Notes under the pieces: generated by a model
Databases searched by the model: none
What the model was told of the DNA's origin: nothing
What the model saw: only the letters and a program-made list of their open reading frames with translations
NCBI GenBank assembly: GCA_017625565.1
Contig: JAGAKN010000015.1
Span: 6,005-70,004, forward strand
From: Clostridia bacterium
GTDB lineage: Bacteria > Bacillota > Clostridia > Christensenellales > Borkfalkiaceae
DNA length: 64,000 bases
Reading direction: 5' to 3'
In this document: piece after piece, positions 39,707 to 63,732 of the stretch
Layout of the letters: every line of letters begins with the position of its first letter
Numbering within the stretch: position 1 is the first letter of the stretch
Made by a program: the position numbers and the translations under genes

Positions 39707-39735
39707 TTTACTTTTCGCGAAGTTTTGTGTATAAT
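39707..39735 (+). promoter_or_regulatory. Sigma-A-type promoter ending 6 nt upstream of an ATG
   Basis: TTTACT, 17 nt spacer, TATAAT. The ATG is at 39742. Confidence 0.5.
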
Positions 39736-39741
39736 AGCCGT

Positions 39742-39996: not shown

Positions 39997-40016
39997 TAAA
40001 GAAAAGGAATACCATT

Positions 40017-40508: not shown

Positions 40509-40560
40509 AACAGCTTTATTTCGTACATGGTACGCTCATTTTTATATAAGGTAAATTGTT

Positions 40561-41730: not shown

Positions 41731-41786
41731 TAAGCGTTAGATTTTTGTGAAAATCTTGAAATTCTTTCGAAAACTTTCAAAAATCA

Positions 41787-41815
41787 TTGACAAACACAAG
41801 AAAATACAGTATAAT
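41787..41815 (+). promoter_or_regulatory. Consensus sigma-A promoter for greA
   Basis: TTGACA, 17 nt spacer, TATAAT (perfect). Confidence 0.7.
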
Positions 41816-41970
41816 TACCATAGAAAAAGATAACCGCCGTGGCTTTTGTCCACGGTTGTATTTTTAACGTTCCGTCGGCGAACGGTTTTTTTCGTGTATT
41901 TGCAATTTTGCAAAATGGGTTCTGACGCGAAAACAACCGCAAATACAAACGGCGCGGAATAGGAGGATTT

Positions 41971-42441
41971 ATGTCGGAACAACAATTTATTATGACGCAA
42001 AAAGGGTATAACGAGGCGAAAGAGCGTTTGCTGTATTTGCAAACGGTAAAACGTCAAGAAATCGTCGATCGTATTGCAGAAGCAAGAAGCCACGGCGACT
42101 TGTCGGAAAACGCGGAATACGACGCGGCGCGCAACGAACAAGCGGCAAACGAAGGTGAAATCGTCGATTTGGATTACAAAATCAAGAACGCCGTGATTAT
42201 CGAAGCAAACTCGGACACGTCTTTCGTACACATCGGCTCGAAAGTACGCGTTTATGATGAAGAATTAGAAGAAGAAGCGGTTTATGAAATCACCGGTTCG
42301 ACGGAAGCGAACGCGATGGAAAATAAGATTTCCAACGAATCCCCCGTCGGTTCAGCGTTGTTGAAACACAAAGTCGATGAAACGGTAAAAGTTTCCGCAC
42401 CCGACGGCGATTATAAATTGAAGATTTTGGAAATTTTCTAA
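41971..42441 (+). CDS. greA: Transcription elongation factor GreA
   Basis: 156 aa. GDLSENAEYDAA acidic-tip motif. Confidence 0.95.
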   Translation: MSEQQFIMTQKGYNEAKERLLYLQTVKRQEIVDRIAEARSHGDLSENAEYDAARNEQAANEGEIVDLDYKIKNAVIIEANSDTSFVHIGSKVRVYDEELEEEAVYEITGSTEANAMENKISNESPVGSALLKHKVDETVKVSAPDGDYKLKILEIF

Positions 42442-42486
42442 TTTATTCCGCTTTTAAAGAATTGATTACGATTGCGAGGTTTTACG

Positions 42487-43998
42487 ATGCAAGAAAATAA
42501 AACGGTAAACGCAACGGCGACCGTAGACGAAGCAGAACAACTCATTGAACAGGCGCGAATTCGCCGTGAAAAGTTAGCAAAACTCGTTTCCGAAGGCAAA
42601 AACCCGTACGAACAGGTGAAATATCCCGTCGACGCGGATTCCGAAACGATCAAAAACAACTTTGAAGCTTTCGAAGGCAAAACGGTGACCATGGCAGGGC
42701 GTATGATGTCCCGTCGGATTATGGGCAAAGCGTCCTTTTCGCATATTGCCGACCGTACCGGTTCGATCCAAATTTACGTGACGCGCCAAGACATCGGCGA
42801 AGAAAATTACGCGTCTTATAAAAAGGACTACGATATCGGCGACATCTTCGGCTTTAAAGGGTTCGTATTCAAAACGCAAACGGGCGAAGTTTCCGTGCAC
42901 GTGCAAGAACTCGTCCTGCTTTCTAAATCCCTTTTGCCGTTGCCCGAAAAATACAACGGGTTGCAAAATCAGGATTTAAAATACCGTTTGCGCCATCTCG
43001 ATCTGATTATGAACAAAGACGTGCGCGATCTTTTCCGCGTTCGCTCTAAAATCTTAAAGGAAATCCGCGCGTACTTGGACGGTCGCGGATACTTAGAAGT
43101 GGACACCCCCACCTTATTACCGCTCGAAATCGGCGCGGACGCCCGTCCGTTTAAAACGCATCATAACGCGCTTGATCTCGATATGTATATGCGTATTGAA
43201 ACGGAGCTTTTCTTAAAACGTTTAATCGTCGGCGGAATGGATAAAGTCTATGAAGTCGGTCGTATTTTCCGCAACGAGGGCATGGACGCTTTCCACAACC
43301 CCGAATTCACTTCCATCGAAATGTACGAAGCGTACAGCGATTACTTCGATATGATGGATATGATCGAAGATTTGTATAAAACGGTCACGTTCAACGTCTG
43401 CGGAACGTTGGATATCACCTACCAAGGCACGGAAATCCACATGGGCGAATGGACGCGCTTGACGATGGCGGAAGCCGTAAAAAAATATGCCGGCGTCGAT
43501 TATAACGACTGGGCTACAGACGAAGACGCGAGAAATTCGGCAAAAGCGCTGGGTGTAGAACTCGAACACGAGAATGCAACGAAGGGCTGGGTACTGATCG
43601 AGTTGTTTGACGCGTTCGTCGAACACAATCTCGTACAACCGACGGTGATCTACGATTATCCCGTGGAAAATTCCCCGCTTGCAAAACGCAAGCCTTCTAA
43701 CCCTGCGTTTACCGAACGTTTCGAATACTTCATTTGCGGACACGAATACGGCAACGCGTTCTCGGAACTCAACGATCCGATCGACCAAAAGCAACGTATG
43801 TTAAAACAAGTCGAAGCAAAACGCGCAAAGGGCAATAACGACGCGCAAGTGGATGAAGATTTCATCAACGCCTTGGAATACGGCATGCCCCCGACAGGCG
43901 GTTTGGGCATGGGGCTCGATCGTTTTGTGATGTTGCTTACGGACAGCTCTACCATTCGCGACGTCATTCTCTTCCCCACGATGAAACCGAAAAAATAA
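42487..43998 (+). CDS. lysS: Lysyl-tRNA synthetase (class II)
   Basis: Start at the ATG 42487. OB anticodon domain and class II motifs (FRNEG, GGLGMGLDR). Confidence 0.95.
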   Translation: MQENKTVNATATVDEAEQLIEQARIRREKLAKLVSEGKNPYEQVKYPVDADSETIKNNFEAFEGKTVTMAGRMMSRRIMGKASFSHIADRTGSIQIYVTRQDIGEENYASYKKDYDIGDIFGFKGFVFKTQTGEVSVHVQELVLLSKSLLPLPEKYNGLQNQDLKYRLRHLDLIMNKDVRDLFRVRSKILKEIRAYLDGRGYLEVDTPTLLPLEIGADARPFKTHHNALDLDMYMRIETELFLKRLIVGGMDKVYEVGRIFRNEGMDAFHNPEFTSIEMYEAYSDYFDMMDMIEDLYKTVTFNVCGTLDITYQGTEIHMGEWTRLTMAEAVKKYAGVDYNDWATDEDARNSAKALGVELEHENATKGWVLIELFDAFVEHNLVQPTVIYDYPVENSPLAKRKPSNPAFTERFEYFICGHEYGNAFSELNDPIDQKQRMLKQVEAKRAKGNNDAQVDEDFINALEYGMPPTGGLGMGLDRFVMLLTDSSTIRDVILFPTMKPKK

Positions 43999-44005
43999 AC
44001 GCTTT

Positions 44006-44039
44006 GCGTCGGCATCGCCTTTTGGGGCGTTGCCGACGC
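44006..44039 (+). terminator. Stem-loop downstream of lysS (no U-tract)
   Basis: GCGTCGGCA / TGCCGACGC stem with an inner CGCC/GGCG pairing and no T-run. Confidence 0.4.
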
Positions 44040-44143
44040 GTATTCTTATACACTCTTTCAAACGAACAGTTTTGTGTTTTTATTCGTTTATACATTTTGA
44101 TATGCGGTAATATTTCAAACGTTTTCTTATTAGGAGTTCGATT

Positions 44144-45154
44144 ATGGATGCAAAAATCACCAAACAACGGTTGAGCAGAATGCTTTCGTATGATTGGATT
44201 AAAATAATTATTTTTTGCGTGGTCGGCATCTTGATTTGGTCGCTCATTTTCACGATGACGGCGACGAAGATCACGACGTCGCAACAATTCGTCGTATACA
44301 ATTACGTAGGCAACCGCCCGTTTACGCACACCAAGTTCTACGAATCCTACACCGGAGCGGTAGAAAACGGGATTTTCTCCTATGAAGTGTTGAAAACGAG
44401 CGTTTTTGACATCGCGGGAACACCCAGCGAAGAACGGAGGTTGATGGAAGGGCATCTTGGCATAGACGAAGGCGACGTTATTTTCGTGGCGGACAGTTGG
44501 CACTTAGACTCGGCTTACGAAGACGAAGAAACGGGCGAAACTCGCTACCAATACACCTATTTACAACAATTCTTATACTCTTGGCGTTTTTACGTCTACG
44601 ATTTAAATCCGGAAAGCGAACACAGTTATTTCCGCCAAATGGAAACCTATCTCGACGGATACTACACCAACGGTTGGGAAGATGCCGAAAGTTTGGATGA
44701 AAGCGCCGTGGAACGGGATTTCCGCGCGCGCGCCAAAAAAGACAAGCGCTTTAAAAAATCTTCGCAAATCCGCCAAGGCCTTCAAGACGATATTACACGT
44801 ATCCAAAATTACCGCAACGCCTTGGAGGAATTCTACGGCTACGTAGAAGCAGGCGTGGTCACGTTCACTCGTACGAGTATGCTCGATCCGGAAGACGAAA
44901 CGCAAACGCTCTTCGACGGCGTATTTACGATCAATATTTGCCCTGACAAAGCGGTTTCGGGCGGACTTTCCGAAATCGTTTCCTATCCGATTAAAACGCT
45001 GGATGAAAACGGCAACGAACAAACCGTTCAAACGGCGGAAAATATGAACGTTGCATTCTTTTATATGGACTCCACCGCAAAGGGTTTCGAGTTTGAGAGC
45101 GTTCCCTATATCACCTATATCATTCGGAACGCCATCGCCGCAACGGAGCATTGA
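44144..45154 (+). CDS. Hypothetical membrane-anchored protein (336 aa)
   Basis: TAGGAG RBS, one N-terminal TM helix (IIIFCVVGILIWSLIF), acidic and Tyr-rich extracytoplasmic part. No recognised family. Confidence 0.6.
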   Translation: MDAKITKQRLSRMLSYDWIKIIIFCVVGILIWSLIFTMTATKITTSQQFVVYNYVGNRPFTHTKFYESYTGAVENGIFSYEVLKTSVFDIAGTPSEERRLMEGHLGIDEGDVIFVADSWHLDSAYEDEETGETRYQYTYLQQFLYSWRFYVYDLNPESEHSYFRQMETYLDGYYTNGWEDAESLDESAVERDFRARAKKDKRFKKSSQIRQGLQDDITRIQNYRNALEEFYGYVEAGVVTFTRTSMLDPEDETQTLFDGVFTINICPDKAVSGGLSEIVSYPIKTLDENGNEQTVQTAENMNVAFFYMDSTAKGFEFESVPYITYIIRNAIAATEH

Positions 45155-45159
45155 TCCGT

Positions 45160-46446
45160 ATGCGGTTGTTTCGGGACAAACCAACACGAAAGCGGTGCAA
45201 ACTGTATTCTATGCTCCGCGCGCAAGCTCGCCGCCCACACAAATCTTTTCACACCCCTGGACATAAGCAAAAGGGATTTGATATCACCGAGCTTTCCTAT
45301 TCGGACAACCTGTCCTGTCCACGCGGTTGTATCCTGGACGCAGAGCGCGACGTTGCCAAAATTCTTAGCGCAAATCGTAGCTTTTTGTTGACCGACGGTA
45401 GCACCGCAGGGGTTTTCGCCATTTTACACACGGCAAAAGCGCAAGGCGTGCGTTCGATCGCCGTATGCGAGAACTCGCACAAAAGCGTGTTTAATGCTTG
45501 CGCAGTGTTGGGGATTACCCCCCTTGTATACGAACAAGCCTACCGCGATAAAATTCCGTTTGTCCACACCAGGTATGCGTTGAATGAAGATTTTGGCAAT
45601 ATTTTTGCGAAAGCGGATGCGGTATTTTTGACTTCGCCTGATTATTACGGCAACGTCGCCGATTTACAGGGTTTTTCTTCGTTTTGTAAAGAAACGGGCA
45701 AACTTTTGCTTGTCGACGGTGCGCACGGTGGGCATTTGCATTTCGAGCCGTCTTTGTACGCAGGCGCTTACGCCGATCTTTGGGTAGACGGCGTCCATAA
45801 GAGCTTGCCCGCCTACACGCAGGGCGCGGTTGTTTCGGCAAAGTCGGAAAATTTGGCGGAATCACTCCGACAAGCGGTCGACTGTTTCCGCACGACAAGC
45901 CCGTCTTATCCGATTATGGCATCGGTAGAGTACGCGGTAAAATATCCGCGCAACGTTTGGTTAGAACAAGCGATAAAAACGCTCCGTGATGATAACGAAC
46001 GCATTTCTATCGGCGAAGATTGGACGAAAGTTTGCGTACGCTTTGGCGATACGGCGTTTCAAGCACACGCGTATTGCGAACAAAAGGGCGTTTACCCCGA
46101 ATTTTGCGACGGGAACGTCGTAATGTTTTATCTTTCGCCTGCTACCAGCCGAAAAGCGTTCCGTTTTTTGCGCCGTTTCTTGCGGAAATTAACGGATTTA
46201 TTCCCGTTTGTGCAACGCAAAGAACAAGAACGGGAGTTTGCGCTTCCGAACAACGCGACAACCGAACAGGTCGCGTTGCGTGATGCAGAAAATCGGCTTT
46301 GCGCTACCAACTGCGGGTTGTTTCCGCCCTGCACTCCGCTTTTACGAGTTGGAGAACGCATCACGGAAGAAAAACTCCGTTTGTTAGAAAGTGCCGACAA
46401 CGTGTACGGTTTGCTCGACGGAAAAATCTCGGTTTTTAAGGAGTAA
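45160..46446 (+). CDS. Orn/Lys/Arg decarboxylase-family PLP enzyme (YaaO-like)
   Basis: SFHTPGHK motif. Start chosen at the ATG 45160 (GGAG 10 nt upstream). Lies directly upstream of tmk, as yaaO does in B. subtilis. Confidence 0.8.
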   Translation: MRLFRDKPTRKRCKLYSMLRAQARRPHKSFHTPGHKQKGFDITELSYSDNLSCPRGCILDAERDVAKILSANRSFLLTDGSTAGVFAILHTAKAQGVRSIAVCENSHKSVFNACAVLGITPLVYEQAYRDKIPFVHTRYALNEDFGNIFAKADAVFLTSPDYYGNVADLQGFSSFCKETGKLLLVDGAHGGHLHFEPSLYAGAYADLWVDGVHKSLPAYTQGAVVSAKSENLAESLRQAVDCFRTTSPSYPIMASVEYAVKYPRNVWLEQAIKTLRDDNERISIGEDWTKVCVRFGDTAFQAHAYCEQKGVYPEFCDGNVVMFYLSPATSRKAFRFLRRFLRKLTDLFPFVQRKEQEREFALPNNATTEQVALRDAENRLCATNCGLFPPCTPLLRVGERITEEKLRLLESADNVYGLLDGKISVFKE

Positions 46447-46451
46447 TACAT

Positions 46452-47078
46452 ATGAAACGCGGAAAATTGATTACGTTTGAGGGTTGCGACGGTTGCGGAA
46501 AAAGCACACAGTTGCGGTTGCTGAGCGAGTACTTGACAAAAAACGCCGTTCCGCATATTTTCACCCGTGAGCCGGGTGGCGGAAAAATCTCTGAAGCCAT
46601 TCGCGAAATCCTACTCAACGGCAAAAACGCCGAAATGACGGACGAATGCGAAGCGCTGTTGTACGCGGCGGCGCGCGTACAACATTTACACGACCGCGTA
46701 GAACCTGCTTTGCGTGACGGCAAGTTGGTTATTTGCGACCGCTACGTGGATTCTTCGCTTGCCTACCAAGCCTATGCGCGTGGTTTGGGCAAGGATTTCG
46801 TCACAAAAATCAATTCGTTTGCTTTGGAGCACTACTTGCCCGACGTGACTGTATTCATCGATCTCACGCCTGAAATGGCTTTCGCGCGTAAACGTGGCGC
46901 GGACGAAAACGACCGTTTAGAACAAGCCGGCATGGAATTCCACCGCAAAGTCTACGCAGGCTACAAAGCGCTCGCCGAGAGCGAGCCAAACCGGTTTGTT
47001 TGCGTGGACGGAAATCAAACTCCGCAAGAAATTTTCCAAAACGTTTTACGTGTTTTACGAGAACGGAACTGCTTATAA
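46452..47078 (+). CDS. tmk: Thymidylate kinase
   Basis: 208 aa. P-loop FEGCDGCGKST and DRY motif. Confidence 0.95.
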   Translation: MKRGKLITFEGCDGCGKSTQLRLLSEYLTKNAVPHIFTREPGGGKISEAIREILLNGKNAEMTDECEALLYAAARVQHLHDRVEPALRDGKLVICDRYVDSSLAYQAYARGLGKDFVTKINSFALEHYLPDVTVFIDLTPEMAFARKRGADENDRLEQAGMEFHRKVYAGYKALAESEPNRFVCVDGNQTPQEIFQNVLRVLRERNCL

Positions 47079-47092
47079 AAACTCTCAAAAAA

Positions 47093-47117
47093 CCCCGTCA
47101 AAATCGACAGGGTTTTT
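47093..47117 (+). terminator. Rho-independent terminator after tmk
   Basis: CCCCGTC / GACAGGG stem (one mismatch) followed by TTTTT. Confidence 0.6.
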
Positions 47118-47138
47118 CTCGTTTTGTTTGTTTTTTTC

Positions 47139-47167
47139 TTGAAATTCTTCTTGTTTCGTGTTATAAT
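47139..47167 (+). promoter_or_regulatory. Near-consensus sigma-A promoter ending 6 nt upstream of the AraC-family start codon
   Basis: TTGAAA, 17 nt spacer, TATAAT. The ATG is at 47174. Confidence 0.65.
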
Positions 47168-47173
47168 AGGTCT

Positions 47174-47950
47174 ATGGATATTTTATACGAACGAACAAGG
47201 GAAGAGCGCAATCGTTTGGAATGTAGCGTTAGTCGTAATCGTGTTTTCCCCCCGCATTTTCATTTGGATTTAGAGCTCCACGTTTTAAGGAGGGGCAATA
47301 TTACCGTCAACGTAAACGGCGAAGAACAAGAAGTACACGACGGCACAATTACCATTATCGACAGCTACGACGTGCACAGTTTCCGTAATCAATCGGGCGA
47401 AAATTGGCAGGATTTGTTGTTGATTATTCCCTACAAATTCTTAACCCGTTTTAATGCAATTCGCGAGAATTTCAAGATCGCCGATCCGTTTATCCACGAT
47501 CCTGCGCTCTGCGAAGAGTTGTATGCGGTTGCCGATCGATTCTTGTTAAATCCCGATTTTCGGAGCGACGAAAACGTACAAGCTTGCGCCGTCGATTTGT
47601 TGCTCTCTCTTTTATGCCGTCGAATCGAATTTTCGAAGAAAAAGGAACGTGGCGACGCGATTTTAGTACGGCAAATCCTTGCGTTTTTGCAGGAGCATTA
47701 TTCCGAAAACGTCAAACGTAGCGACGTTGCACGGGAGCTGGGATACACAGAAACGCATATTTCCCGTGTCTTTCACCGTTTTTTGCAAATGGGAATTTCG
47801 GAATACGTCAACAGACTGCGTTTATCGGAAATGGAACGTAGGCGTAAACAAGGGGACACACGCACGACGTTGGAACTTTTGTACGAAGTCGGGTTTCAAA
47901 GCCAACAAACGTACTACCGCGCCAAACTAAAAGCTGAAGAGAATGCATAA
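47174..47950 (+). CDS. AraC-family transcriptional regulator (cupin plus HTH)
   Basis: 258 aa from MDILYERT... N-terminal cupin (HFHLDLELHVL) and C-terminal AraC HTH (ELGYTETHISRVF). The longer ORF from 47000 overlaps tmk and its terminator. Confidence 0.85.
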   Translation: MDILYERTREERNRLECSVSRNRVFPPHFHLDLELHVLRRGNITVNVNGEEQEVHDGTITIIDSYDVHSFRNQSGENWQDLLLIIPYKFLTRFNAIRENFKIADPFIHDPALCEELYAVADRFLLNPDFRSDENVQACAVDLLLSLLCRRIEFSKKKERGDAILVRQILAFLQEHYSENVKRSDVARELGYTETHISRVFHRFLQMGISEYVNRLRLSEMERRRKQGDTRTTLELLYEVGFQSQQTYYRAKLKAEENA

Positions 47951-47957
47951 ATTTATA

Positions 47958-47988
47958 AAAGCCACTCGCAAAGCGAGTGGCTTTTTCT
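47958..47988 (+). terminator. Rho-independent terminator after the AraC-family gene
   Basis: AAAGCCACTCGC / GCGAGTGGCTTT stem followed by a T-run. Confidence 0.85.
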
Positions 47989-48011
47989 ATTCTACGTTCA
48001 TAAAGCCAAAG

Positions 48012-48041
48012 AAAAAAGGCTTGGATATCCAAGCCTTTTCG
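48012..48041 (-). terminator. Rho-independent terminator after gap
   Basis: AAGGCTTGGA / TCCAAGCCTT palindromic stem with a T-run on the minus strand. Confidence 0.8.
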
Positions 48042-48062
48042 TTTTGCATTTTTCTCGGTGAA

Positions 48063-49082
48063 TTAAAGTTCCGCGAAATATTTGATCGTTCTAACCATTT
48101 GGCTGGTGTACGAGTTTTCGTTGTCATACCAGGAAACGACCTTAACAAGCGTCGTGCCGTCGCCCATGGGCATGCACTTCGTTTGCGTTGCGTCGAACAA
48201 CGAACCGTAGGTGATACCGATGATGTCGGACGAAACGAGTTCTTCTTCGGTGTAGCCGAACGATGCGGATGCCGCCGCTTTCATCGCTGCGTTTACCGTA
48301 GCCGCGTCAACTTCGCCTTCGCAGAATGCAACGAGTTGGGTAAGCGAACCGGTGGGAACGGGAACACGTTGTGCGCAACCGTCCAAAACGCCGTTAAGTT
48401 CAGGGATTACCAAGCCGATTGCTTTTGCAGCGCCCGTCGAGTTGGGAACGATGTTCGCAGCAGCAGCGCGCGCACGACGAAGGTCACCCTTTCTGTGCGG
48501 TCCGTCAAGAACCATTTGGTCACCCGTGTAAGCGTGGATCGTGGTCATGTACCCTTTCTTAATTTTGCAAAGCTTGTTCAACGTATTTGCCATAGGAGCA
48601 AGGCAGTTCGTCGTACAGGACGCAGCGGAGATGATCGTGTCGTTCTTCGTCAACGTCTTTTCGTTTACGCTGTAAACGATGGTAGGAAGGTCGTTGCCTG
48701 CGGGTGCAGAGATAACAACTTTCTTAGCGCCTGCTTTGATGTGCGCTTCGGATTTTGCTTTCGACGTATAGAAGCCGGTGCATTCCAAAACTACGTCTAC
48801 GTCAAGTGCAGCCCAAGGGCAGTTCACTGCATCTTTTTCTGCGTAAATCTTGATCGTCTTGCCGTTTACGGTGATCGTGCCTGCTTCGTCGTCAGCGGAA
48901 ACCGTATCCGCGAGCGCGTATCTGCCTTGCGCAGAGTCATACTTCAAAAGGTGTGCAAGCATCGAGGGGCTAGTAAGGTCGTTGATCGCAACTACTTCAT
49001 AGCCTTCTGCGCCGAACATCTGTCTGAATGCAAGACGGCCGATACGACCGAAACCGTTGATTGCAACTTTTACGTTTGCCAT
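48063..49082 (-). CDS. gap: Glyceraldehyde-3-phosphate dehydrogenase
   Basis: 339 aa. NGFGRIGR and the active site SCTTNCLAP. Confidence 0.97.
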
Positions 49083-49165
49083 AATGTTTATCCTCCAATA
49101 TATGAAAAAATTTATTTGTTTCTATCGGTTGATTTAGGTTTTTAACACCCTTTTCTTCCTAGTAT

Positions 49166-49194
49166 ATTCTACCATACTTTTTCTTTTTCGTCAA
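49166..49194 (-). promoter_or_regulatory. Sigma-A-type promoter for gap
   Basis: Minus strand TTGACG, 17 nt spacer, TAGAAT. Confidence 0.6.
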
Positions 49195-49321
49195 TAATTT
49201 TGCGCAATCGAAAACAAAATTATTTCCCAAATTGTATAGAAAAACGTTTTTTCTTTTCGCCGTCCTGCCTTTTCTGTGAAAAACAGACAAAAAGCGTTCG
49301 GTTTTTTAACTTTGTTTTCCT

Positions 49322-51004
49322 TTAAGGCAGTTTCGGCGTCACCAAAACCGTCTTGTAATCGGTGTACACCACAAACCCCGCTTTGCTTTTGTTTGGCTTT
49401 TTGACGTACTTGCGCTTGCAATAATCCACGGGAATTTTATCCCCGTCCCGCCCATCCGAATAATAGGCGCAAATTTGCGCGGCAACTTCCAACGTTTCGT
49501 CGGAAACACGCTTTCCATCTGTTGCGATAATCACGTGCGAAGAATGGTATTTTTGCGTGTGCAACCACAAATCTTCGGGGGACGCCGACCGCAACAACCG
49601 ATCGTTTTGCAAATTGTTCCGCCCTGCGTAAATTTTCATACCGCCGTGCGTAAACTCCCGAAAAGGAACGGGCTCGTCCTTCCTTTTTACTCCCGCGCGG
49701 AGCTTGGGCGCGCGCAACAACCCCATTTCGATTAACTCCATTGACAATTCCTGAATATCTTCTTTCGTTTCAGCCGTAAAAATCGCCGAAAGCACGCTGT
49801 CCGTGTACTCGATTTCCGCCCGTTCTTGTTCAAGCATCGGCGTCAAAACTTCTTTCGTGCGCTTTTGTTTGTTGTACGCTTTAAAATACCTCTGCGCGTT
49901 TTTCGACGGGGAGAGCGTTTCGTCCAAAGCAATCTTTACCGTACCGCCGTCGGGGGAGTACCAATTTTCTAGCTCCACGCAAGTCGCTCCCTTTTCGATG
50001 CGGTACAAATTCGCCGTCAAAAGCTCGCCTTTGATACGATATTCATCCGCCTTTTCCGACTCCTGCAAGCGCTCCAGCGTCGTTTGTAGTTTTTTTGCCT
50101 GTTTTTTCTTTAACGCGCGAACGGAGTTCTCTAATTTCCGTTTTTGATCGTCGAAACCCTTCTTGCTTTCCCGACGGAAAAAGTACTCGTCTTCCGCCCG
50201 ACAAAGCGACGGCATTTCTACGCCGTTTGGAACGGGGAACGCGAAAAAGTCGACAGGGATTCCCTTTTTATCGTAAGTCACGCAAGGGGAGTTCGGCTCG
50301 TCCAAACAAAACGCGCCGACAAATTCCCAGAGCGGTTTGTCTTGGGTTTTTACCCGTTCCGCAATATGCCTAGTGGTAGAAAGCGCAAGCCCGGAAACGT
50401 TGTTAAACAAGAAATTTGCAACGTCCTCCGCCTCCGTGTTTTTGCGGTTTTTTAGAAAGTTTTCATAGCGTGAACGCATACCTGCCCCGTCGAAAGGCGA
50501 AATTTTATCCTGTGGATCGGGATAGACGTACTTCGCCCCGGCAAGCAACACTCGGCGGGTATTATCTTCCAAAGCGCCCGTTTTTAACGCACCCAAAATC
50601 ACGTCGTTTTCCGTCAATAACACGTTGGAATATTTCCCCATCAACTCGCACCGTAATACGCGGATACTTTGGGAAAAATCCGTCGTACAATGCAGGGAAA
50701 TTTCGATAATCCGCTCGAACCCGTGTTGACGGACGTCTAAAATTTCCGCTCCCTGCAAATGTTTTCTTAAGAGCATGCAAAAATTCGGGGCGACAGGCGC
50801 AGGCTCTTTCTCCGTTTGCGCAAGGCAAACCCGCGCGCCCGAAGCGGATGCGCTAATGACGAGTTTTACCGTCGTTTTTCCCGTGTAGATAATAAACGTA
50901 AGCTCGTCCTTATTGACTTGGGAAATACGGTTGATTTTTCCACCCACTAAAAAAGCGTGTAGCTCCTTTGTCAGGCGTCGGATATGAAAAGCGTCCTGTG
51001 GCAT
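49322..51004 (-). CDS. rqcH: RqcH / FbpA (NFACT-family ribosome quality-control protein)
   Basis: Start at the ATG 51004 (AAGGAA RBS): MPQDAFHIRRLTKELH... NFACT-N and NFACT-R domains, coiled coil, about 560 aa. Confidence 0.85.
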   Translation of the reverse strand: MPQDAFHIRRLTKELHAFLVGGKINRISQVNKDELTFIIYTGKTTVKLVISASASGARVCLAQTEKEPAPVAPNFCMLLRKHLQGAEILDVRQHGFERIIEISLHCTTDFSQSIRVLRCELMGKYSNVLLTENDVILGALKTGALEDNTRRVLLAGAKYVYPDPQDKISPFDGAGMRSRYENFLKNRKNTEAEDVANFLFNNVSGLALSTTRHIAERVKTQDKPLWEFVGAFCLDEPNSPCVTYDKKGIPVDFFAFPVPNGVEMPSLCRAEDEYFFRRESKKGFDDQKRKLENSVRALKKKQAKKLQTTLERLQESEKADEYRIKGELLTANLYRIEKGATCVELENWYSPDGGTVKIALDETLSPSKNAQRYFKAYNKQKRTKEVLTPMLEQERAEIEYTDSVLSAIFTAETKEDIQELSMELIEMGLLRAPKLRAGVKRKDEPVPFREFTHGGMKIYAGRNNLQNDRLLRSASPEDLWLHTQKYHSSHVIIATDGKRVSDETLEVAAQICAYYSDGRDGDKIPVDYCKRKYVKKPNKSKAGFVVYTDYKTVLVTPKLP

Positions 51005-51237
51005 AACAGTTCCTTTATTTTCGCGTGTCGAAAGCTGATAAAAAAGCGAAAAACTTCTTTCTTTTTTTAAATTATACCGCAAATTTTCGAAATTGTAAAT
51101 AAAAACGATAGAAAAACGCTTTATTTTCTTTGACAAATATGCTAAAATGTTAGACGTAGCTACGCGTTCGTATACGCGTGCGTTATATAATATGGTAAAG
51201 AAAAGAAATTAATTAGCAATAGCAGGAGAAATTAGTT

Positions 51238-52536
51238 ATGAAGTACACTACCAAAGCATCGGCAAAAAGTACGGTAAAAATCACCATCAAGTTCGACGGT
51301 GAAGAATGGAAAGCAGCGCAAACGAAAGCGTATTTGAAAACGAGAAGTCGTTTTGCAATCAACGGTTTCCGTAAAGGCAAAGCTCCCAAAAACGTTATCG
51401 AACACGTTTACGGCAAAGGCGTATTCTATGAAGACGCGCTCAACCTTCTCTTCTCGGAAAACTACAATACCATTCTCGACAAGGAAGAAAAGAAGTTTAT
51501 CGCAGTTGGCGAACCCGAAGTTTCGGTGGATAAACTCGAAGACGACGGCGTGACGCTCGTAGCAGTCACCCCTGTAAAACCCGAAGTGAAGATTTCCGCT
51601 TATACGGGTATGAAAATTAAGGAATTTGCGTATACTGTTAAGGACGAAGAAGTTGCAGAAGAAGTCAACCGCCTTTTGGAACGCAACGCACGCAAAGTGC
51701 CCGTGGAAGACAGAGCGGCACAAAACGGCGATATCGCAAATATCGATTTCGTTGGCTCGGTCGACGGCGTGAAGTTCGACGGTGGCGAAGCGCACGGGTT
51801 CGATCTTACGCTCGGTAGCGGACAATTTATTCCCGGTTTTGAAGAACAAGTCGTTGGTATGCAAATCGGCGAAGAAAAAGACGTCAACGTTTCCTTCCCT
51901 GAAAACTACCAAGCAGAAGATTTGAAGGGTAAACCGGCTGTATTTGCGGTAAAACTCAACGCGCTCCAAGCGAAAGAGCTCCCCGAACTTACGGACGAAT
52001 TCATCAAGGAAGCAACGGGTAGCGAAACGGTAGAAGCGTACAAGGAAAAGACGAAAGAACGCCTTGCGCAAATGGCGAAACGTCGCGCGAACGACGCTAC
52101 GGAAAACAGCATTCTCGAAGCGGTTGCTGCGAATGCGGAAGCGGAAATTCCCCAAGCGATGATCGAAAGAGAAATCGACGGTTTGGTACAAAAATTCGAA
52201 TATCAATTAATGTATCAAGGCATGAAATTGCAAGACTATCTCGATTTCTTGAAAACGACGATGGCGGATTTCAGAAAGAATTACGAAGAACAAGCAAAGA
52301 AGAACGTTTTAAATCAATTAATTATTTCGCAACTTATTAAAGACGAAAAGATCGAAGCGACGGAAGAAGAAGTCGAAGCGAGAGTTGCTGAACAAGCAAC
52401 GTCCGTAAGCAAGACGACGGAAGAATATAAAAAGAATATGGATCCCCGTCAATTCGACTATATCCGCAACGATATCATCATTACGAAGTTGTTTGATTTC
52501 TTGAAAGCGAACAACGAAATGTACGTGGAAGAATAA
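51238..52536 (+). CDS. tig: Trigger factor
   Basis: 432 aa. GFRKGKAP ribosome-binding motif and an FKBP PPIase domain. Confidence 0.95.
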   Translation: MKYTTKASAKSTVKITIKFDGEEWKAAQTKAYLKTRSRFAINGFRKGKAPKNVIEHVYGKGVFYEDALNLLFSENYNTILDKEEKKFIAVGEPEVSVDKLEDDGVTLVAVTPVKPEVKISAYTGMKIKEFAYTVKDEEVAEEVNRLLERNARKVPVEDRAAQNGDIANIDFVGSVDGVKFDGGEAHGFDLTLGSGQFIPGFEEQVVGMQIGEEKDVNVSFPENYQAEDLKGKPAVFAVKLNALQAKELPELTDEFIKEATGSETVEAYKEKTKERLAQMAKRRANDATENSILEAVAANAEAEIPQAMIEREIDGLVQKFEYQLMYQGMKLQDYLDFLKTTMADFRKNYEEQAKKNVLNQLIISQLIKDEKIEATEEEVEARVAEQATSVSKTTEEYKKNMDPRQFDYIRNDIIITKLFDFLKANNEMYVEE

Positions 52537-52550
52537 TTTGTTTCGAAAGT

Positions 52551-52574
52551 ACGCCACCGTAAAATCGGTGGCGT
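52551..52574 (+). terminator. Stem-loop between tig and clpP (no U-tract)
   Basis: ACGCCACCG / CGGTGGCGT stem with no following T-run. Confidence 0.35.
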
Positions 52575-52595
52575 CACTATCCCAAGGAGTTTTTT

Positions 52596-53186
52596 ATGGA
52601 AAAGAACGTTTTAATCCCCTACGTCGTAGAACGTACTTCGTCGGGAGAGCGCACTTACGATTTGTATTCCCGCTTACTCGACGATCGAATCATCTTTTTG
52701 AGTGGGGAAATTAACGACGCGGTCGCAAATACCGTCGTTGCGCAACTTATTTATTTGGAAGGGAAAGACCCTACGAAAGATATCAGTTTGTATATCAACT
52801 CCCCCGGCGGTTCGGTTTCCGCTGGTATGGCGATCTACGACACGATGAATTATATCAAATGCGACGTTTCGACGATTTGTATCGGTTTGGCTGCGTCCAT
52901 GGGCGCGTTTCTTTTGTCGAGTGGCGCGCGCGGTAAGCGTTTTGCATTACCCAACTCCGAGATCATGATCCATCAACCTTTGGGCGGAGCGCAAGGGCAA
53001 GCCAGCGATATTAAAATCCAAGCGGAGCACATTTTGCGCACGAAAGCAAAACTCAATCGCATTCTTTCGGAAAACACCGGTAAAGAAATCGGCGTGATCG
53101 AACGGGATACGGATAGAGATTATTATATGTCCGCCGAAGAAGCGCGCGTATACGGTTTGATCGATAAAGTATTTTTAAAACGCTAA
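52596..53186 (+). CDS. clpP: ATP-dependent Clp protease proteolytic subunit
   Basis: 196 aa. Catalytic GLAASMG and HQP motifs. Confidence 0.97.
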
Positions 53187-53381
53187 TCACCGTAATTAGA
53201 AAAGTTTTTCGCGCAGAACCCTTTCGGTTTTGCGCGCTCATTTTCCTTGAATATCCCGTTTCTTTTATGAAAATCAACGGGGCAGGTATGTGATGAAGGG
53301 TTTTTGGGAATACTCTTTTTGGTATTCACAAACCTTGTATATTTCGCATACAATTTTATAGAAAAATAACGGAGTAAAACT

Positions 53382-54620
53382 ATGTCCAATAAAAATCAAC
53401 ATTGTTCCTTTTGCGGAAAACCCAAAGAAGAAACCCGTCGTTTGATTTCAAGCCCTGACGGCGCTTGTATTTGCGACGAGTGTGTGGAAATTTGTAAGTC
53501 AATGGTAGACGAATGGGTGGACGAAAAGGAAACACAATCGGAAGTTCCTTTAAAAAAACCTGCGGAAATTAAAGCGGAACTCGATCAGTATATCGTCGGG
53601 CAAGACAAGGCAAAGCGCGTCCTTTCGGTTGCCGTTTATAACCATTATAAGCGCATTAACGCAACGGCAGATAAAAAGAAAAACGACGACGGCGTAGAAA
53701 TTGAAAAGAGCAACGTTCTTTTACTTGGACCTACAGGGAGTGGGAAAACTTTGCTTGCGCGGACGCTTGCGAAAATTTTAAACGTACCCTTTGCTACTTC
53801 CGACGCCACGACGCTCACCGAAGCAGGCTACGTTGGGGAAGACGTAGAGAATATTCTTTTGAAACTCATTCAAAACGCCGATTACGATATCAACCGTGCG
53901 CAACGTGGAATTATTTATATTGACGAAATCGATAAGATTGCGAGAAAGAGTGAAAACGTTTCGATTACGCGCGACGTTTCCGGGGAAGGCGTTCAGCAAG
54001 CGCTTTTAAAAATTATTGAAAGCACGACGGCAAACGTTCCACCCCAAGGCGGAAGAAAACATCCTAACCAAGAATATTTGCGCATTGATACTACGAATAT
54101 TTTGTTTATTTGCGGTGGCGCGTTCGTGGGACTTGATAAAATCGTATCTTCAAGAAAGGACGATACGACTCTTGGATTCGGCGGAAAAGTACGTTTGGGT
54201 GCAAACGAAGCGGATTATTCCGTTTTAGAAGACGTAAAACCCCAAGATCTTACCAAGTTTGGATTAATTCCGGAATTTGTCGGAAGAATTCCCATCGTCG
54301 TGAATTTAGATCCGTTGGGAGAAGACGCTTTGGTAAAAATTTTGACCGAGCCGAAAAACGCGATAATCAAACAATATCAAAAGCTCGTCGGATTTGACGG
54401 AGTAAAACTGACGGTACAAGACGACGCTGTTCGGGAAATCGCGCAAACGGCAATCCGTTTAAAAACAGGCGCGCGCGGACTTCGGACGATTATCGAAAAC
54501 GTAATGACGGACGTTATGTATAAAATTCCATCTGAAGAAAATATTGAAGAAGTGGTTATTACAAAGGAATGTTTAACCAACGGGGAAAATCCCCTGCTAA
54601 TTTATAAGAAAGCAAGTTGA
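53382..54620 (+). CDS. clpX: ATP-dependent Clp protease ATP-binding subunit ClpX
   Basis: 412 aa. Zinc ribbon CSFCGK...CDEC and Walker A GPTGSGKT. Confidence 0.97.
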
Positions 54621-54625
54621 TTTAG

Positions 54626-54654
54626 AAAGCCTTACTTTTAGTAAGGCTTTTTTA
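54626..54654 (+). terminator. Rho-independent terminator after clpX
   Basis: AAAGCCTTAC / GTAAGGCTTT stem followed by a T-run. Confidence 0.85.
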
Positions 54655-54664
54655 TTTCCTTTCA

Positions 54665-54693
54665 TTGACAAAACTTTTAAGAAGTGTTATAAT
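54665..54693 (+). promoter_or_regulatory. Consensus sigma-A promoter ending 6 nt upstream of the ATG at 54700
   Basis: TTGACA, 17 nt spacer, TATAAT (perfect). Confidence 0.7.
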
Positions 54694-54699
54694 TTTCCT

Positions 54700-55191
54700 A
54701 TGGAACAAATTTCTTTTTTAGAAGAAAAATTACCGATGACGGCGTGCGTATTTACCGGACACCGAGAATTAGAGAAGGATTTTTCTTTAAAAAAATTAAA
54801 ATATTTAACGGAAACCCTTATTTTAAAAGGAGTTTCCTCCTTTTACTGTGGCATGGCAGAAGGTTTTGATTTATTCGCGTCGAAAACGGTAATTTCTTTA
54901 AAAAAGAAATATCCACATATTCAGTTGATTGCTTGTATTCCTTGCCTTAACCAAGAAAAATATTTTTCTTCTGTAAATAAAAAACTCTACGTAAAAACGT
55001 TATCCTCTTGCGACGAAAAAGTGCTCCTATCTCCGTCTTATCATAAAGGCTGTATGTTAAATAGAAATAAATATATGGTCGATCATTGTGATTGTATGAT
55101 TGCGTATTGCAAAAAGGATACAGGTGGAACAGCTTTTACCGTGAAATATTTCCAAAAAACAAAAAACAAAACGAATATCTTCTTCCTATAA
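54700..55191 (+). CDS. DUF1273 / YpsA-like SLOG-family protein
   Basis: 163 aa. FTGHR, GMAEGFD and TGGT motifs resemble the YpsA/SLOG family. An alternative start at Met13 (54736) aligns better with family N-termini. AT-rich and uses many TTA codons. Confidence 0.65.
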   Translation: MEQISFLEEKLPMTACVFTGHRELEKDFSLKKLKYLTETLILKGVSSFYCGMAEGFDLFASKTVISLKKKYPHIQLIACIPCLNQEKYFSSVNKKLYVKTLSSCDEKVLLSPSYHKGCMLNRNKYMVDHCDCMIAYCKKDTGGTAFTVKYFQKTKNKTNIFFL

Positions 55192-55200
55192 TCCCCGTTA

Positions 55201-55480
55201 CTTAAATATATTTATATAAATAAAAATAGTAGTATTAGTAGTAGTGTGGGTGGAAAAGTGGACAACCCTTAAAAATAAAAAATAAAGCCCTTTTAATTAA
55301 AGAAATTTTTAGAAAAAATCGTTGTGTAGAACTTCCCTTTTTTTAGTGGATATTATTGTGAATAGTTTGTGGAATTGTGTATAGTAAAAAATTTAAAATT
55401 TTATATTTATAAAAAAGTAAATAATAAAAATACAAAATGAAAACAGTCCACAAACGTTGTTAACATTGTGGATAAACGTG
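55201..55480. other. oriC-like region: AT-rich tract, DnaA-trio run, GC cluster, DnaA boxes, a second 60-bp AT tract
   Basis: - 55201-55226 is 25/26 A/T.
- 55227-55244 reads TAG TAG TAT TAG TAG TAG.
- 55245-55253 is TGTGGGTGG.
- Degenerate boxes lie at 55257, 55323, 55345, 55357, 55368 and 55377.
- 55381-55440 is 56/60 A/T.
- A perfect TGTGGATAA lies at 55467-55475. Confidence 0.75.
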
Positions 55481-55534
55481 TTGTTTATAGAAAGTGAAAT
55501 TCTTTATAAAGCGTAAAAAAATTAGGAAATAAAT

Positions 55535-56206
55535 ATGATTAAAGAACAATTAATTAAAGAAAAAAAAGAATATTTCGATGCGTTTAGGGCGTTGATTTTA
55601 GAATATAATAAGCGGTTTAATTTAACGACGATTTTGGATGAAAAAGATATGTATTATAAGCATTTTCTCGATAGCGTTGCCGGGATAGAGTGCTTTGAAA
55701 AAAATACGAAAGTTGCAGAAGTAGGTTCAGGCGCAGGGTTTCCTTCCATCGCATTAAAAATTGTTGAACCGAGTTTAGAATTTTCCCTTTTTGAAAGTGT
55801 AGGAAAAAAATGCGAATTTTTGCACGTTGTTGTGGATAAACTTGGATTAAAAGGAATGTATATTTATAACATGCGTGCAGAAGACGCATTAAAGGAAAAC
55901 ATACATAGAGAACAGTACGATTACGTGACAGCGCGGGCAGTTGCTCGTATGAATACGTTGACGGAATACTGTTTGCCTTTTGTAAAGGTGGGCGGAAGGT
56001 TTATTGCATATAAAAGCGGTGAAAAAGAAGAGATTGACGAAGCAAAAACCGCCTATAAAACGTTGGGCGGAACGTTGGAAAAAATTTACGAGTACGAATT
56101 GCCTGAAAATTACGGAAAAAGGATTATTGCCGTTGTAAAAAAGGTAAAAAATACGCCTTTGCAATATCCGCGCGGACAAGGAAAAGAGCGAAAACAACCA
56201 CTTTGA
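55535..56206 (+). CDS. rsmG: 16S rRNA (guanine527-N7) methyltransferase RsmG (GidB)
   Basis: 223 aa. SAM motif VGSGAGFP and family-typical length. Contains an internal perfect DnaA box at 55831-55839. Confidence 0.9.
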   Translation: MIKEQLIKEKKEYFDAFRALILEYNKRFNLTTILDEKDMYYKHFLDSVAGIECFEKNTKVAEVGSGAGFPSIALKIVEPSLEFSLFESVGKKCEFLHVVVDKLGLKGMYIYNMRAEDALKENIHREQYDYVTARAVARMNTLTEYCLPFVKVGGRFIAYKSGEKEEIDEAKTAYKTLGGTLEKIYEYELPENYGKRIIAVVKKVKNTPLQYPRGQGKERKQPL

Positions 56207-56327: not shown

Positions 56328-57446
56328 ATGAAATTTGTTTGCGACGGAATGGTGCTTTCGGATGCCGCTACGACGGTAAGTAAGGCTTGCGCGGTAAAGA
56401 CGATCACGCCGATTATGGAATGTATCAAAATGCGTGCGGAAAACGACGGACTTATTTTGACTGCTTACGACGGTGAAATTTCCATTGAAAAGAAAATTCC
56501 TGCAGACGTTATGGAAGAAGGCGAAATTTGCGTGAAAGGAAAAACGTTTGCTGATTTCGTTGGTAAAATTTCCGCTTTTGAAGTGGTTATAAGCTCCAAC
56601 GAAAAAGGAATAAAAATTAATTACGCGGACAGCGAATCTTTTATGCAAACACTCTCTGCGGAAGATTTTCCCCGCTTAGGAAATCAACTCGGCAACAACG
56701 AACATTATTTTGAATGCAAGGAATCGGCATTGAAAAAACTCATTTCCGAAGTTGTGTTCTGTTGCGCAACCGACGAAAGTAGACCGATTTTGAAAGGTTG
56801 CTTGTTAGAAGCGAAAGACGGTGTTTTGTCGGCGTCGGCGCTGGACGGATTCCGTATGGCTTGTTCTTATTGTGAAGAGGTAGAAGGTAGCGGAAATTTA
56901 AAAATCGTTTGTCCTGCGAGAACGTTAACGGAAATTTCCCGTATGCTTGACGGCGACGAACCGTTGAAAATTTTTGCCGATAAAAACTTGTTGTCGGTAT
57001 GCGTAAAAGATACGGTGATCACGTCGAGATTGTACGCAGGAGAATTCGTTAGAAAAGAAAATATTTATCCCTTGGATTCGACGACGAAACTTACGGTAAA
57101 ACGCGCGGAAATGATCGATAGCGTCGAACGCGCGTCCGTACTCATTCGTGGAGATAAAAACAATTTGATTTTGCTTGATATTAAAAACGGGAAAGTCGTG
57201 ATTAATGCGAACTCCGAAATGGGCAAAATTGAAGAAACGGTTTCGGCGACGCTGGACGGGAAAGATTTGCGGATCGCGATGAACGCGAAGTATTTGTTGG
57301 ACGCGATAAAAGCTTTAGATGAAGAAACCATTAAGCTCGCATTCACGTCGGCGATTTCCCCTTTCACTTTGGAAAATGCGGAAAATCCGCGCGCGCAATA
57401 CTTAATTTTACCCGTACGTACGGGAAATTCGGGCGCAAACAACTAA
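56328..57446 (+). CDS. dnaN: DNA polymerase III beta sliding clamp
   Basis: 372 aa. Three-domain clamp pattern and a YLILPVR C-terminal motif. Confidence 0.95.
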   Translation: MKFVCDGMVLSDAATTVSKACAVKTITPIMECIKMRAENDGLILTAYDGEISIEKKIPADVMEEGEICVKGKTFADFVGKISAFEVVISSNEKGIKINYADSESFMQTLSAEDFPRLGNQLGNNEHYFECKESALKKLISEVVFCCATDESRPILKGCLLEAKDGVLSASALDGFRMACSYCEEVEGSGNLKIVCPARTLTEISRMLDGDEPLKIFADKNLLSVCVKDTVITSRLYAGEFVRKENIYPLDSTTKLTVKRAEMIDSVERASVLIRGDKNNLILLDIKNGKVVINANSEMGKIEETVSATLDGKDLRIAMNAKYLLDAIKALDEETIKLAFTSAISPFTLENAENPRAQYLILPVRTGNSGANN

Positions 57447-60905: not shown

Positions 60906-60943
60906 ACGCCCCCTTTGCGGAAAACCGCAAAGGGGGCGTTTTT
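60906..60943 (+). terminator. Strong rho-independent terminator after jag
   Basis: Perfect 15-bp stem ACGCCCCCTTTGCGG / CCGCAAAGGGGGCGT with an AAAA loop and a T-run. Confidence 0.9.
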
Positions 60944-63194: not shown

Positions 63195-63666
63195 CTATCC
63201 ACAGAAAAAAACGTTATCCACAATGAAAAAAGAAGAAAAAAGTTCCCCCGAAAACGGCTTGTAGGATCTTGTCGCGCGGGGGATTTTTTTGTCGAAAAAT
63301 AAAATTATAAATCGTATGCAAAAGCAAAAAAAGTCGGTTATCCACAAAAATGTGGAGAAAAAAAGGTTGTCCACCCAACAAATTTCAAAAATGTGGATAA
63401 TTAGCCCTGTCAATGTGCAAGCAGGGGCTGTTTTAAAACGGGTATTTTATTAAAACTCCTTGAAAACAAAGGGAAAGAGATGTGGATAACTACTCCACAA
63501 ACGCGCGCAAATAAAGAAAAGAAGATAAAAAAAACTTGTGGATAAAAAACAGGGAGAGAGAAAAAAGTGGATAAATTTGCAAAAACGTCGCAAAAAAAGT
63601 GAAAAAATATGCGCAATTATCCACAAACGTTTGTTCTTTTCCACAAGTCGAAAAAAGTTTTCCACA
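63195..63666. repeat. Dense DnaA-box cluster (13 boxes, 6 perfect)
   Basis: - Perfect TTATCCACA/TGTGGATAA at 63214, 63338, 63392, 63481, 63537 and 63617.
- One mismatch at 63195, 63351, 63566, 63637 and 63658.
- Two mismatches at 63367 and 63491. Confidence 0.9.
63244..63290 (+). terminator. Candidate terminator after cvpA
   Basis: 7-bp stem TCCCCCG / CGGGGGA with a 26-nt loop, followed by T7. Confidence 0.45.
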
Positions 63667-63732
63667 AATATGCATTGCAGTATATTTGCATACGGGGTAA
63701 AATTATGCAAAAAACAGGTGCTGGAATGGTCC

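Follow-up and report, generated by a model that had tools for sequence, protein, structure and literature searches.

A stretch of 64,000 nucleotides from a Candidatus Scatosoma-like genome of an uncultured gut Clostridia bacterium (hereafter, the window) was analyzed around a short module at positions 55201-55265. The intergenic region between ypsA and rsmG (55192-55534), together with one DnaA box inside rsmG, is very probably the chromosomal origin of replication (oriC) of this genome, and positions 55202-55265 are very probably its basal unwinding system (BUS). The oriC assignment rests on the architecture of the module, its uniqueness, its conservation, a switch in strand-composition skew and a minimum of duplex stability. 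DnaA binding, unwinding and the role of accessory boxes are predicted by analogy with characterized origins. The results supported the module as a canonical BUS marking oriC, an element of a known kind, in an unusual context: dnaA is not nearby, the module is linked to rsmG, its orientation flips within the clade, and a satellite cluster of DnaA boxes accompanies it.

The plus strand of 55201-55265 reads CTTAAATATATTTATATAAATAAAAATAGTAGTATTAGTAGTAGTGTGGGTGGAAAAGTGGACAA, and the minus-strand string quoted in an earlier note on this DNA was its exact reverse complement. From left to right, the plus strand carries a pure A/T tract of 27 nt, six in-phase trinucleotides, a 4-nt spacer and two tandem co-oriented DnaA boxes, as follows:

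55202-55228, no strand: A/T-rich candidate DNA unwinding element (DUE), pure A/T over 27 nt, sharing the first two bases of the trio run
55227-55244, plus strand: six DnaA-trios, TAG TAG TAT TAG TAG TAG (consensus 3'-GAT-5')
55245-55248: 4-nt spacer TGTG (CACA on the minus strand), in the place of the B. subtilis "GC cluster" GGCC; G-rich and 4-5 nt long in relatives
55249-55257, minus strand: proximal DnaA box TTTTCCACC, two mismatches, equivalent of B. subtilis DnaA-box#7
55257-55265, minus strand: distal DnaA box TTGTCCACT, two mismatches, equivalent of B. subtilis DnaA-box#6

Both boxes belonged to the minus strand and followed the plus-strand 5'-TAG-3' run on its 3' side, and each had two mismatches to the DnaA consensus TTATCCACA (zero to two in relatives), as the earlier note had stated for the distal box. 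Its six in-phase triplets, five of them CTA on the minus strand, and its single G/C in the last 26 nt were also recovered. What it had described as a GC-rich box-like element, CCACCCACA, was instead the second DnaA box TTTTCCACC plus the 4-nt spacer CACA. In the window, 12 nt separated the distal box from the first trio; in relatives, this distance was 12-13 nt. Ten consecutive NAN triplets were present in total, six of which are the trios; five of these six are TAG with the 3'-GA-5' dinucleotide, which is preferred in trios (PMC10721633). By analogy with such trios, the run would provide a single-strand binding track for the ATP-DnaA oligomer.

A BUS has been defined by a DnaA box with up to two mismatches, frequently doubled in tandem, a spacer no longer than 16 bp (peak, 10-13 bp) and three or more NAN trinucleotides (Pelliciari 2021, PMC8287927). 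All the sequence features of a BUS were found in the module (box mismatch, tandem co-orientation, spacer, NAN trios and unstable A/T element), and a strand-composition switch at the proposed origin was found within the DNA analyzed. The Bacillus subtilis scaffold oHM558, which was unwound in vitro, reads TAGTAGAAGTAATAGTAG GGCC TGTGGATT TGTGGATAA (PMC8287927 supplement). The corresponding sequence of the window, TAGTAGTATTAGTAGTAG TGTG GGTGGAAA AGTGGACAA, was aligned with it without gaps across the module. The proximal box was aligned with TGTGGATT of the scaffold, and its core GTGGA was invariant in the alignment. The element order was collinear with the scaffold of the published unwinding assays, and in this respect the parallel drawn by the earlier note with the B. 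subtilis unwinding region was well founded.

The trio run was unique in the window. The pattern (TAG)x6 with at most three mismatches matched only this site on both strands (128 kb of strand, 0.02 matches expected), and 0 of 100 shuffles reached the observed count. An independent scan, which required at least three exact TAG and at least five middle adenines per six in-phase triplets, also gave a single site in the 64-kb window, at 55227-55244. The same scan of 21 related loci gave the homologous site and one weak three-TAG run (L016, 3170-3187). When the published BUS rule was applied to the window, the module was the lone TAG-bearing match. Permissive matches at the boxes at 60916, 63537 and 44046 were rejected as A-rich runs without TAG; the first of them is the jag terminator region, and the second is not kept in the related locus L001. 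It could be argued that the trio run arose by chance as a microsatellite, in a 3' untranslated or promoter region rich in A/T, that it plays no part in replication, and that the boxes serve only for DnaA control of rsmG and dnaN. Short period-3 repeats do suit A/T-rich intergenic DNA, and DnaA is known to control transcription at several of the box clusters in B. subtilis. However, only 0.02 such runs were expected by chance, and we regard this explanation as hardly credible in view of this value and of further evidence given below.

The duplex stability of the module was also exceptional. The least stable 25-mer of the 64 kb was located at 55203-55228 (dG -20.8 versus a mean of -35.0, z 4.23), and in length 55202-55228 ranked second among the pure A/T runs of the window. 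For 40-mers and 60-mers, the stability minimum of the 64 kb was likewise reached in this intergenic region, at 55380-55440 (z 4.4-4.65). An Rfam scan of 50-64 kb gave zero family matches.

The conservation of the module was evaluated in representative genomes scanned with DnaN, which gave 21 loci from Candidatus Scatosoma and allied uncultured gut Clostridia (DnaN 54-86% identical). All 16 loci covering the region upstream of rsmG carried the module in register; conservation of the trios in relatives, which the earlier note had proposed as a check, was thus observed in 16 genomes. The shared parts were the A/T tract, the TAG TAG TAT TAG TAG core, a 4-5 nt spacer rich in G, and TGTGGAAA(A)GTGGACAA. 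In the alignment of the 16 genomes and the B. subtilis scaffold, where only the oHM558 part of the B. subtilis row is exact, the middle adenines of the trios at 55228, 55234, 55240 and 55243 were invariant, and those at 55231 and 55237 were conserved in at least 90%. The columns homologous to the DUE were at least 90% A/T in the 16 relatives. The distal box GTGGA(C/T)AA was nearly invariant across them, and the proximal box was TTTTCCACA or ATTTCCACA in most. The box cores were invariant in the gapped alignment, and the flanking intergenic DNA was only ~30-50% identical. A microsatellite would vary in copy number, whereas the trio core and its 4-5 nt distance from the box were held clade-wide.

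Strand-composition skew was analyzed by gene-wise regression with gene strand as a covariate, for total GC skew and for GC skew at the third codon position (GC3). The best change point of the GC3 skew was located at 54.5-55.5 kb, with a residual sum of squares (RSS) of 717-720. The RSS was 978 without an arm term, ~913 for a switch at 62.5 kb and 967 for a switch at 40 kb. GC3 skew was negative in tig, clpP, clpX and ypsA on the left and positive in rsmG, dnaN, rnpA, yidD and yidC on the right, and it was nearly independent of gene strand (strand coefficient -0.02). For total GC skew, the coefficients were +0.08 for strand and +0.056 for arm, and its sliding value changed sign somewhere between 40 and 55 kb. 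The third-position skew was used because gene strand contributes as much as replication to total GC skew. In relatives, GC3 skew was lower on the left of the module than on the right in 13 of 14 usable genomes, with a mean difference of ~+0.14; these 14 are related and hence not independent replicates, and they include genomes in which the module is inverted relative to dnaN. The microsatellite explanation leaves the co-location of the trio run with the skew switch and the stability minimum unexplained. The gene-strand switch at ~39.7 kb was also considered as an origin and rejected, since the plus-strand genes at 40-55 kb carry a left-arm-like negative GC3 skew. The two switches, of gene strand (~39.7 kb) and of GC3 skew (~55 kb), do not coincide, and the ~15 kb at 39700-55191, left of the inferred origin, hold almost exclusively plus-strand genes, including tig-clpP-clpX.

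Several observations weigh against placing oriC in the ypsA-rsmG intergenic region. Little or no left-right difference in GC3 skew was observed in four relatives arranged like the window (L002, L005, L007 and L020) and in L019. Total GC skew placed the switch only at 49-55.5 kb. The DNA examined covers 64 kb of the replicon (73 kb with the extension described below), and a local sign change within it could in principle reflect rearrangement. The ~15 kb of genes to the left of the module would be transcribed head-on to the leftward fork, which is unusual beside a Firmicute origin. Both tandem boxes have two mismatches here, while the cluster at 63.5 kb has seven perfect boxes. Finally, the DnaA protein itself is presumed from the conserved boxes, as no dnaA gene was found in the DNA examined.

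DnaA signature motifs were absent from all frames of the window and the 21 related loci in a regular-expression search. In tblastn searches with B. subtilis DnaA, the best E values were 0.7-0.9 in the window, the relatives' loci and a 9 kb rightward extension. The query was checked against PDB 8btg chain A and matched it end to end (E 4.5e-298). The extension, L022, reaches window-equivalent position 73185, and its overlap with the window is 100% identical. According to these searches, the DNA is free of dnaA for at least 55 kb leftward and 18 kb rightward of the module, and dnaA was also missing within 10 kb of dnaN in the 21 relatives. The Bacillus context between dnaA and dnaN, which the earlier note had cited, therefore applied only in part: dnaA is absent, and rsmG (55535-56206) lies between the module and dnaN. 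In place of the canonical Firmicute arrangement (rnpA-rpmH-[oriC1]-dnaA-[oriC2]-dnaN), the flanking genes are ypsA and rsmG. The genes rpmH-rnpA-yidD-yidC-jag, which are upstream of dnaA in other Firmicutes, are co-directional downstream of dnaN here.

The orientation of the module relative to rsmG was constant. It was always on the 5' side of this gene, and the linkage was kept in 16 genomes. The other neighbor varied and was the 3' end of ypsA, the 5' end of ypsA or the start of dnaN. This behavior also argues against a microsatellite, because a module that moves with rsmG and swaps its other neighbor is not tied to a particular 3' untranslated region. The DUE end pointed away from dnaN (56328) in the window, as stated in the earlier note, and in L002, L003, L005, L007 and L020. 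This orientation was not a property of the clade, as the DUE end pointed toward dnaN in L010, L012-L019 and L021. In L010, L012-L016 and L021, the order was rsmG (minus), boxes, trios, DUE, ypsA (plus) and dnaN (plus); L017 showed this order too, with ypsA on the minus strand. The DUE directly adjoined the dnaN start only in the most distant relatives, L018 and L019. Judging from these arrangements, the Bacillus-like orientation of the DUE toward dnaN is probably ancestral, and that of the window is probably derived, by a local inversion. Turning an L017-type block (rsmG, origin and ypsA) around once would yield the arrangement of the window. The flanking blocks NFACT-tig-clpP-clpX and queT-DUF1256-cvpA swapped sides and orientation between genomes (L004, L008, L012 and L015 versus the window), but with respect to the origin module their orientation was unchanged. 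Inversions that span an origin should leave such a pattern, and it agrees with the high frequency of inversions observed around origins. In L012-type genomes, tig-clpP-clpX again points at the origin, from the opposite side.

The plus-strand gene order around the module is tig, clpP, clpX, ypsA, a 343-nt intergenic region, rsmG, dnaN, (rpmH), rnpA, yidD, yidC and jag, followed by queT (minus), DUF1256 (minus), cvpA (plus), a 550-nt non-coding region and gerAC/gerAB/gerAA (minus). The ypsA-rsmG intergenic region (55192-55534) held seven DnaA boxes with at most two mismatches, all on the minus strand and one of them perfect, and its box density was the second highest in the window. The features next to the module are as follows:

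54700-55191, plus strand: ypsA (YpsA SLOG family, DUF1273; PF06908), stop codon at 55189-55191, 10 nt before the A/T tract
55323-55384, minus strand: four more weak DnaA boxes (starts 55323, 55345, 55357 and 55376), two mismatches each, co-oriented with the tandem pair
55380-55440, no strand: second A/T-rich tract, holding the longest pure A/T run of the window (55385-55416)
55446-55475: convergent DnaA-box pair just upstream of rsmG, weak CAGTCCACA on the plus strand at 55446-55454 and perfect TTATCCACA on the minus strand at 55467-55475
55535-56206, plus strand: rsmG (gidB; PF02527, E 2.2e-46), between the module and dnaN
55831-55839, minus strand: perfect DnaA box within coding DNA of rsmG, over codons V-V-D, in the same orientation as the intergenic boxes
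56328-57446, plus strand: dnaN (beta clamp), three DNA_pol3_beta domains

Arrays of four to five co-oriented boxes were present at the equivalent place in every relative, and an A/T-rich tract was also found at the position of the second tract. In the convergent pair of the relatives, both boxes were perfect (TTATCCACA, 13 nt, TGTGGATAA). In the window, the left box had decayed to CAGTCCACA, and the gap was 14 nt when counted to TGTGGATAA and 12 nt between the annotated 9-mers. The box inside rsmG was perfect in 14 of 14 Scatosoma-clade genomes and absent from L018 and L019, which are distant; at the three third positions where synonymous change is possible (GTT GTG GAT) it was fixed, while the flanking codons varied. 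The box array thus reaches into rsmG, which accounts for rsmG and the module travelling together. On the other side, the module adjoins the stop codon of the DUF1273 gene ypsA, as the earlier note had observed. The ypsA promoter (54665-54693) has a perfect extended sigma-70 consensus (TTGACA, 17 nt, TG-TATAAT), and no terminator-like site was found between the ypsA stop codon and the A/T tract (55192-55201). The ypsA transcript therefore probably enters the unwinding element in this genome type.

A second group of DnaA boxes, denser than that of the module and not mentioned in the earlier note, was found 8 kb to the right:

62463, plus strand: ATG start of cvpA (the TTG start in the list of open reading frames is too long)
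63195-63666, no strand: satellite DnaA-box cluster, seven perfect and five one-mismatch boxes in 470 nt, the densest in the window
63668-63700: motif resembling TGCATAAA / ATAAATATACA

The cluster lies between the convergent 3' ends of cvpA (plus; Pfam Colicin_V) and a gerAC-like gene (minus; Pfam Spore_GerAC), and it has therefore no obvious promoter to regulate. It was kept in nine relatives, with 8-13 boxes each, ~8-13 kb from the module. In the window and these relatives, a conserved trio run, a tandem pair with trios after it and a long A/T tract were all lacking; the longest A/T run of the window's cluster was 18 nt. The cluster was missing after cvpA in L010, and its flanking genes were on the other side of the module in L012. 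Its features are those of an origin-external DnaA-box cluster (DBC) of the B. subtilis DBC or Escherichia coli datA type, that is, high-affinity boxes near the origin and outside the unwinding region, with neither DUE nor trios. By analogy with such clusters, its most likely function is DnaA titration or regulation near the origin, not unwinding. The motif resembling TGCATAAA / ATAAATATACA recurred across the clade in A/T-rich parts of both DnaA-box regions, namely in the A/T tract upstream of rsmG in L002, L003, L007, L010, L016 and L017 and in the second clusters of L003, L011 and L014. It could represent a degenerate DnaA site (cf. TTATNCACA) or be recognized by another origin-binding factor.

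The cluster could also be regarded as the true origin, with the module at 55.2 kb as a decayed relic or as a DnaA-regulated rsmG-dnaN promoter region. It has the highest box density, with seven perfect boxes versus one in the ypsA-rsmG intergenic region and 11 versus seven boxes with at most two mismatches. It is also conserved, and DnaA boxes upstream of dnaN-type operons can be regulatory. This alternative is nevertheless very unlikely. The GC3 change point was at 54.5-55.5 kb (RSS 717-720, versus ~913 at 62.5 kb), and the cluster lacks both a TAG trio run and a tandem co-oriented pair with trios after it, and has an A/T run of only 18 nt. Its lone permissive BUS-rule match, AAAGAAGATAAAAAAAAC before the box at 63537, is poly-A without TAG and is the one not kept in L001. 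Moreover, a relic would not be expected to retain its trio adenines, spacing and A/T tract in genomes whose DnaN is as little as 54% and up to 86% identical.

The main alternative is a bipartite origin, in which 55.2-55.8 kb would be oriC2, 63.2-63.7 kb would be oriC1, and DnaA bound at both would loop out the 8 kb from rsmG to cvpA, much as B. subtilis, Clostridioides difficile and Helicobacter pylori loop out dnaA. In origins of that type, dnaA separates two box clusters, one of which carries the DUE, and unwinding requires both. Unwinding would still occur at 55202-55244. Firmicute origins typically consist of a box-rich oriC1 (9-19 boxes, no trios) and an oriC2 (5-9 boxes, trios and DUE), and the same division was observed here. 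The second cluster was kept in nine relatives, always ~8-13 kb from the module, and a distal box of B. subtilis is active through a loop at 462 bp. However, the separation of 8-13 kb is variable and far from the ~1.4 kb of known bipartite origins. The cluster is missing after cvpA in L010 and has its flanking genes across the module in L012; it lies between convergent gene ends, about ten genes from the module, and does not flank dnaA. The same facts are explained by clusters such as the origin-proximal ones of B. subtilis that are not part of oriC. We therefore consider a bipartite origin possible but unlikely.

The motif TGTCGAA, which we take to be the Spo0A-box consensus, was found at conserved positions of the cluster in the window (63290-63296) and in L001, L002, L006, L011, L013, L014 and L021, and right beside the tandem BUS boxes in L003 and L020. 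It was not enriched window-wide (5 found versus ~8 expected). The gerA operon is present, and these genomes therefore probably sporulate. A broader scenario joins these elements: an ancestral dnaA-oriC-dnaN unit would have been dismantled, leaving a portable cassette that is linked to rsmG, has some of its boxes within that gene, and recently changed its orientation toward dnaN and, presumably, toward the replichores; dnaA would have moved away, by no less than 55 kb if leftward and 18 kb if rightward; and the 12-box cluster with its Spo0A-box-like TGTCGAA would be a long-range second half of the origin that couples initiation to sporulation. This scenario is tentative and on the whole doubtful. 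If it were true, the flipped cassette would be a natural experiment on whether the orientation of a BUS matters.

For the module as BUS, a mechanism may be proposed after the model of B. subtilis. ATP-DnaA would use its domain IV to bind the tandem pair of co-oriented boxes (55249-55265). The DnaA-ATP oligomer would then extend onto the six plus-strand trios at 55227-55244, capture their 3'-GA-5' dinucleotides and stretch this strand. The opening would spread into the 27-nt A/T tract at 55202-55228, where the helicase would be loaded. The weak boxes at 55323-55384, the strong box at 55467 and the rsmG box at 55831 would probably raise local DnaA, like the distal boxes #1-3 of B. subtilis, and the satellite cluster possibly tunes the local supply of DnaA.

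With this assignment, the origin is placed to the base in a genus for which all genomes so far are metagenome-assembled, and it may be useful for growth-rate estimation by read depth (peak-to-trough ratio), for genome orientation and for assembly checking. It adds independent comparative support that the BUS of B. subtilis is conserved in distant Clostridia, down to the 12-nt spacing between box and trios, and indicates that the module persists although it is no longer linked to dnaA and has been inverted relative to dnaN. Origin finders that use dnaA adjacency or maximal box density would fail here, as they would find nothing or choose the cluster at 63.5 kb. The mechanistic understanding of origin unwinding is unchanged by these findings.

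Compared with known systems, the module is most similar in layout to the BUS of B. subtilis incC (Richardson 2016 and 2019; Pelliciari 2021 and 2023). In both, a 9-nt distal box directly adjoins an 8-nt proximal box, a spacer of 4 nt comes next, and six trios of the 3'-GAT-5' consensus lead into an A/T tract of ~27 nt, with the boxes co-oriented on the same side of the trio strand. The distance from distal box to first trio is 12 nt in both, and the spacer of B. subtilis is tabulated as CCGG, written 3'->5' (PMC8287927 supplement). Co-orientation is functionally relevant there, since reversing box#6/#7 inactivates incC (PMC6669920). Unlike incC, the module is flanked by ypsA and rsmG instead of dnaA and dnaN, each box has two mismatches whereas box#6 of B. 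subtilis is perfect, the spacer is TGTG instead of GGCC, and the orientation to dnaN is reversed in this genome.

The cluster at 63195-63666 resembles the B. subtilis DBCs and E. coli datA in its dense high-affinity boxes near the origin, outside the unwinding region and without a DUE. The origin-proximal DBCs of B. subtilis (e.g., thdF-jag) restrain initiation and are not part of oriC (PMC3245932). The present cluster differs in having 12 boxes with at most one mismatch, versus five in datA, and in its position between convergent 3' ends, and its titration role is putative.

As in E. coli oriC, the proposed origin is unlinked from dnaA and adjoins rsmG/gidB, and transcription from a neighboring gene can enter it. 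In E. coli, oriC sits beside the gidA(mnmG)-gidB(rsmG) operon. It lies 42 kb from dnaA (PMC3245932). It differs in its 13-mer DUE repeats, its R/I/tau/C boxes, its IHF and Fis sites and its single box by a trio-like motif, and it belongs to another lineage. The shared rsmG neighborhood may thus reflect ancestral synteny rather than a shared mechanism. In cyanobacteria, oriC is upstream of dnaN, and dnaA is located elsewhere. A BUS of one of them, Synechococcus elongatus, has been tested (PMC8287927). The likeness consists of a BUS-type origin next to dnaN with a non-adjacent dnaA, and the differences are the phylum and the lack of rsmG linkage.

Within the class Clostridia, the closest parallel is provided by C. 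difficile oriC2, in the intergenic DNA from dnaA to dnaN (PMC7561715). In C. difficile, rnpA-rpmH-dnaA-dnaN is kept and dnaA lies between the two box clusters, whereas dnaA was absent from the DNA examined here and the clusters are 8 kb apart. Both genomes have a second, box-richer cluster without trios. Furthermore, the trios are near-identical (CTACTACTATTACTACTA in C. difficile versus CTACTACTAATACTACTA here) and are followed by a predicted DUE, and those of C. difficile adjoin an experimentally mapped unwinding site.

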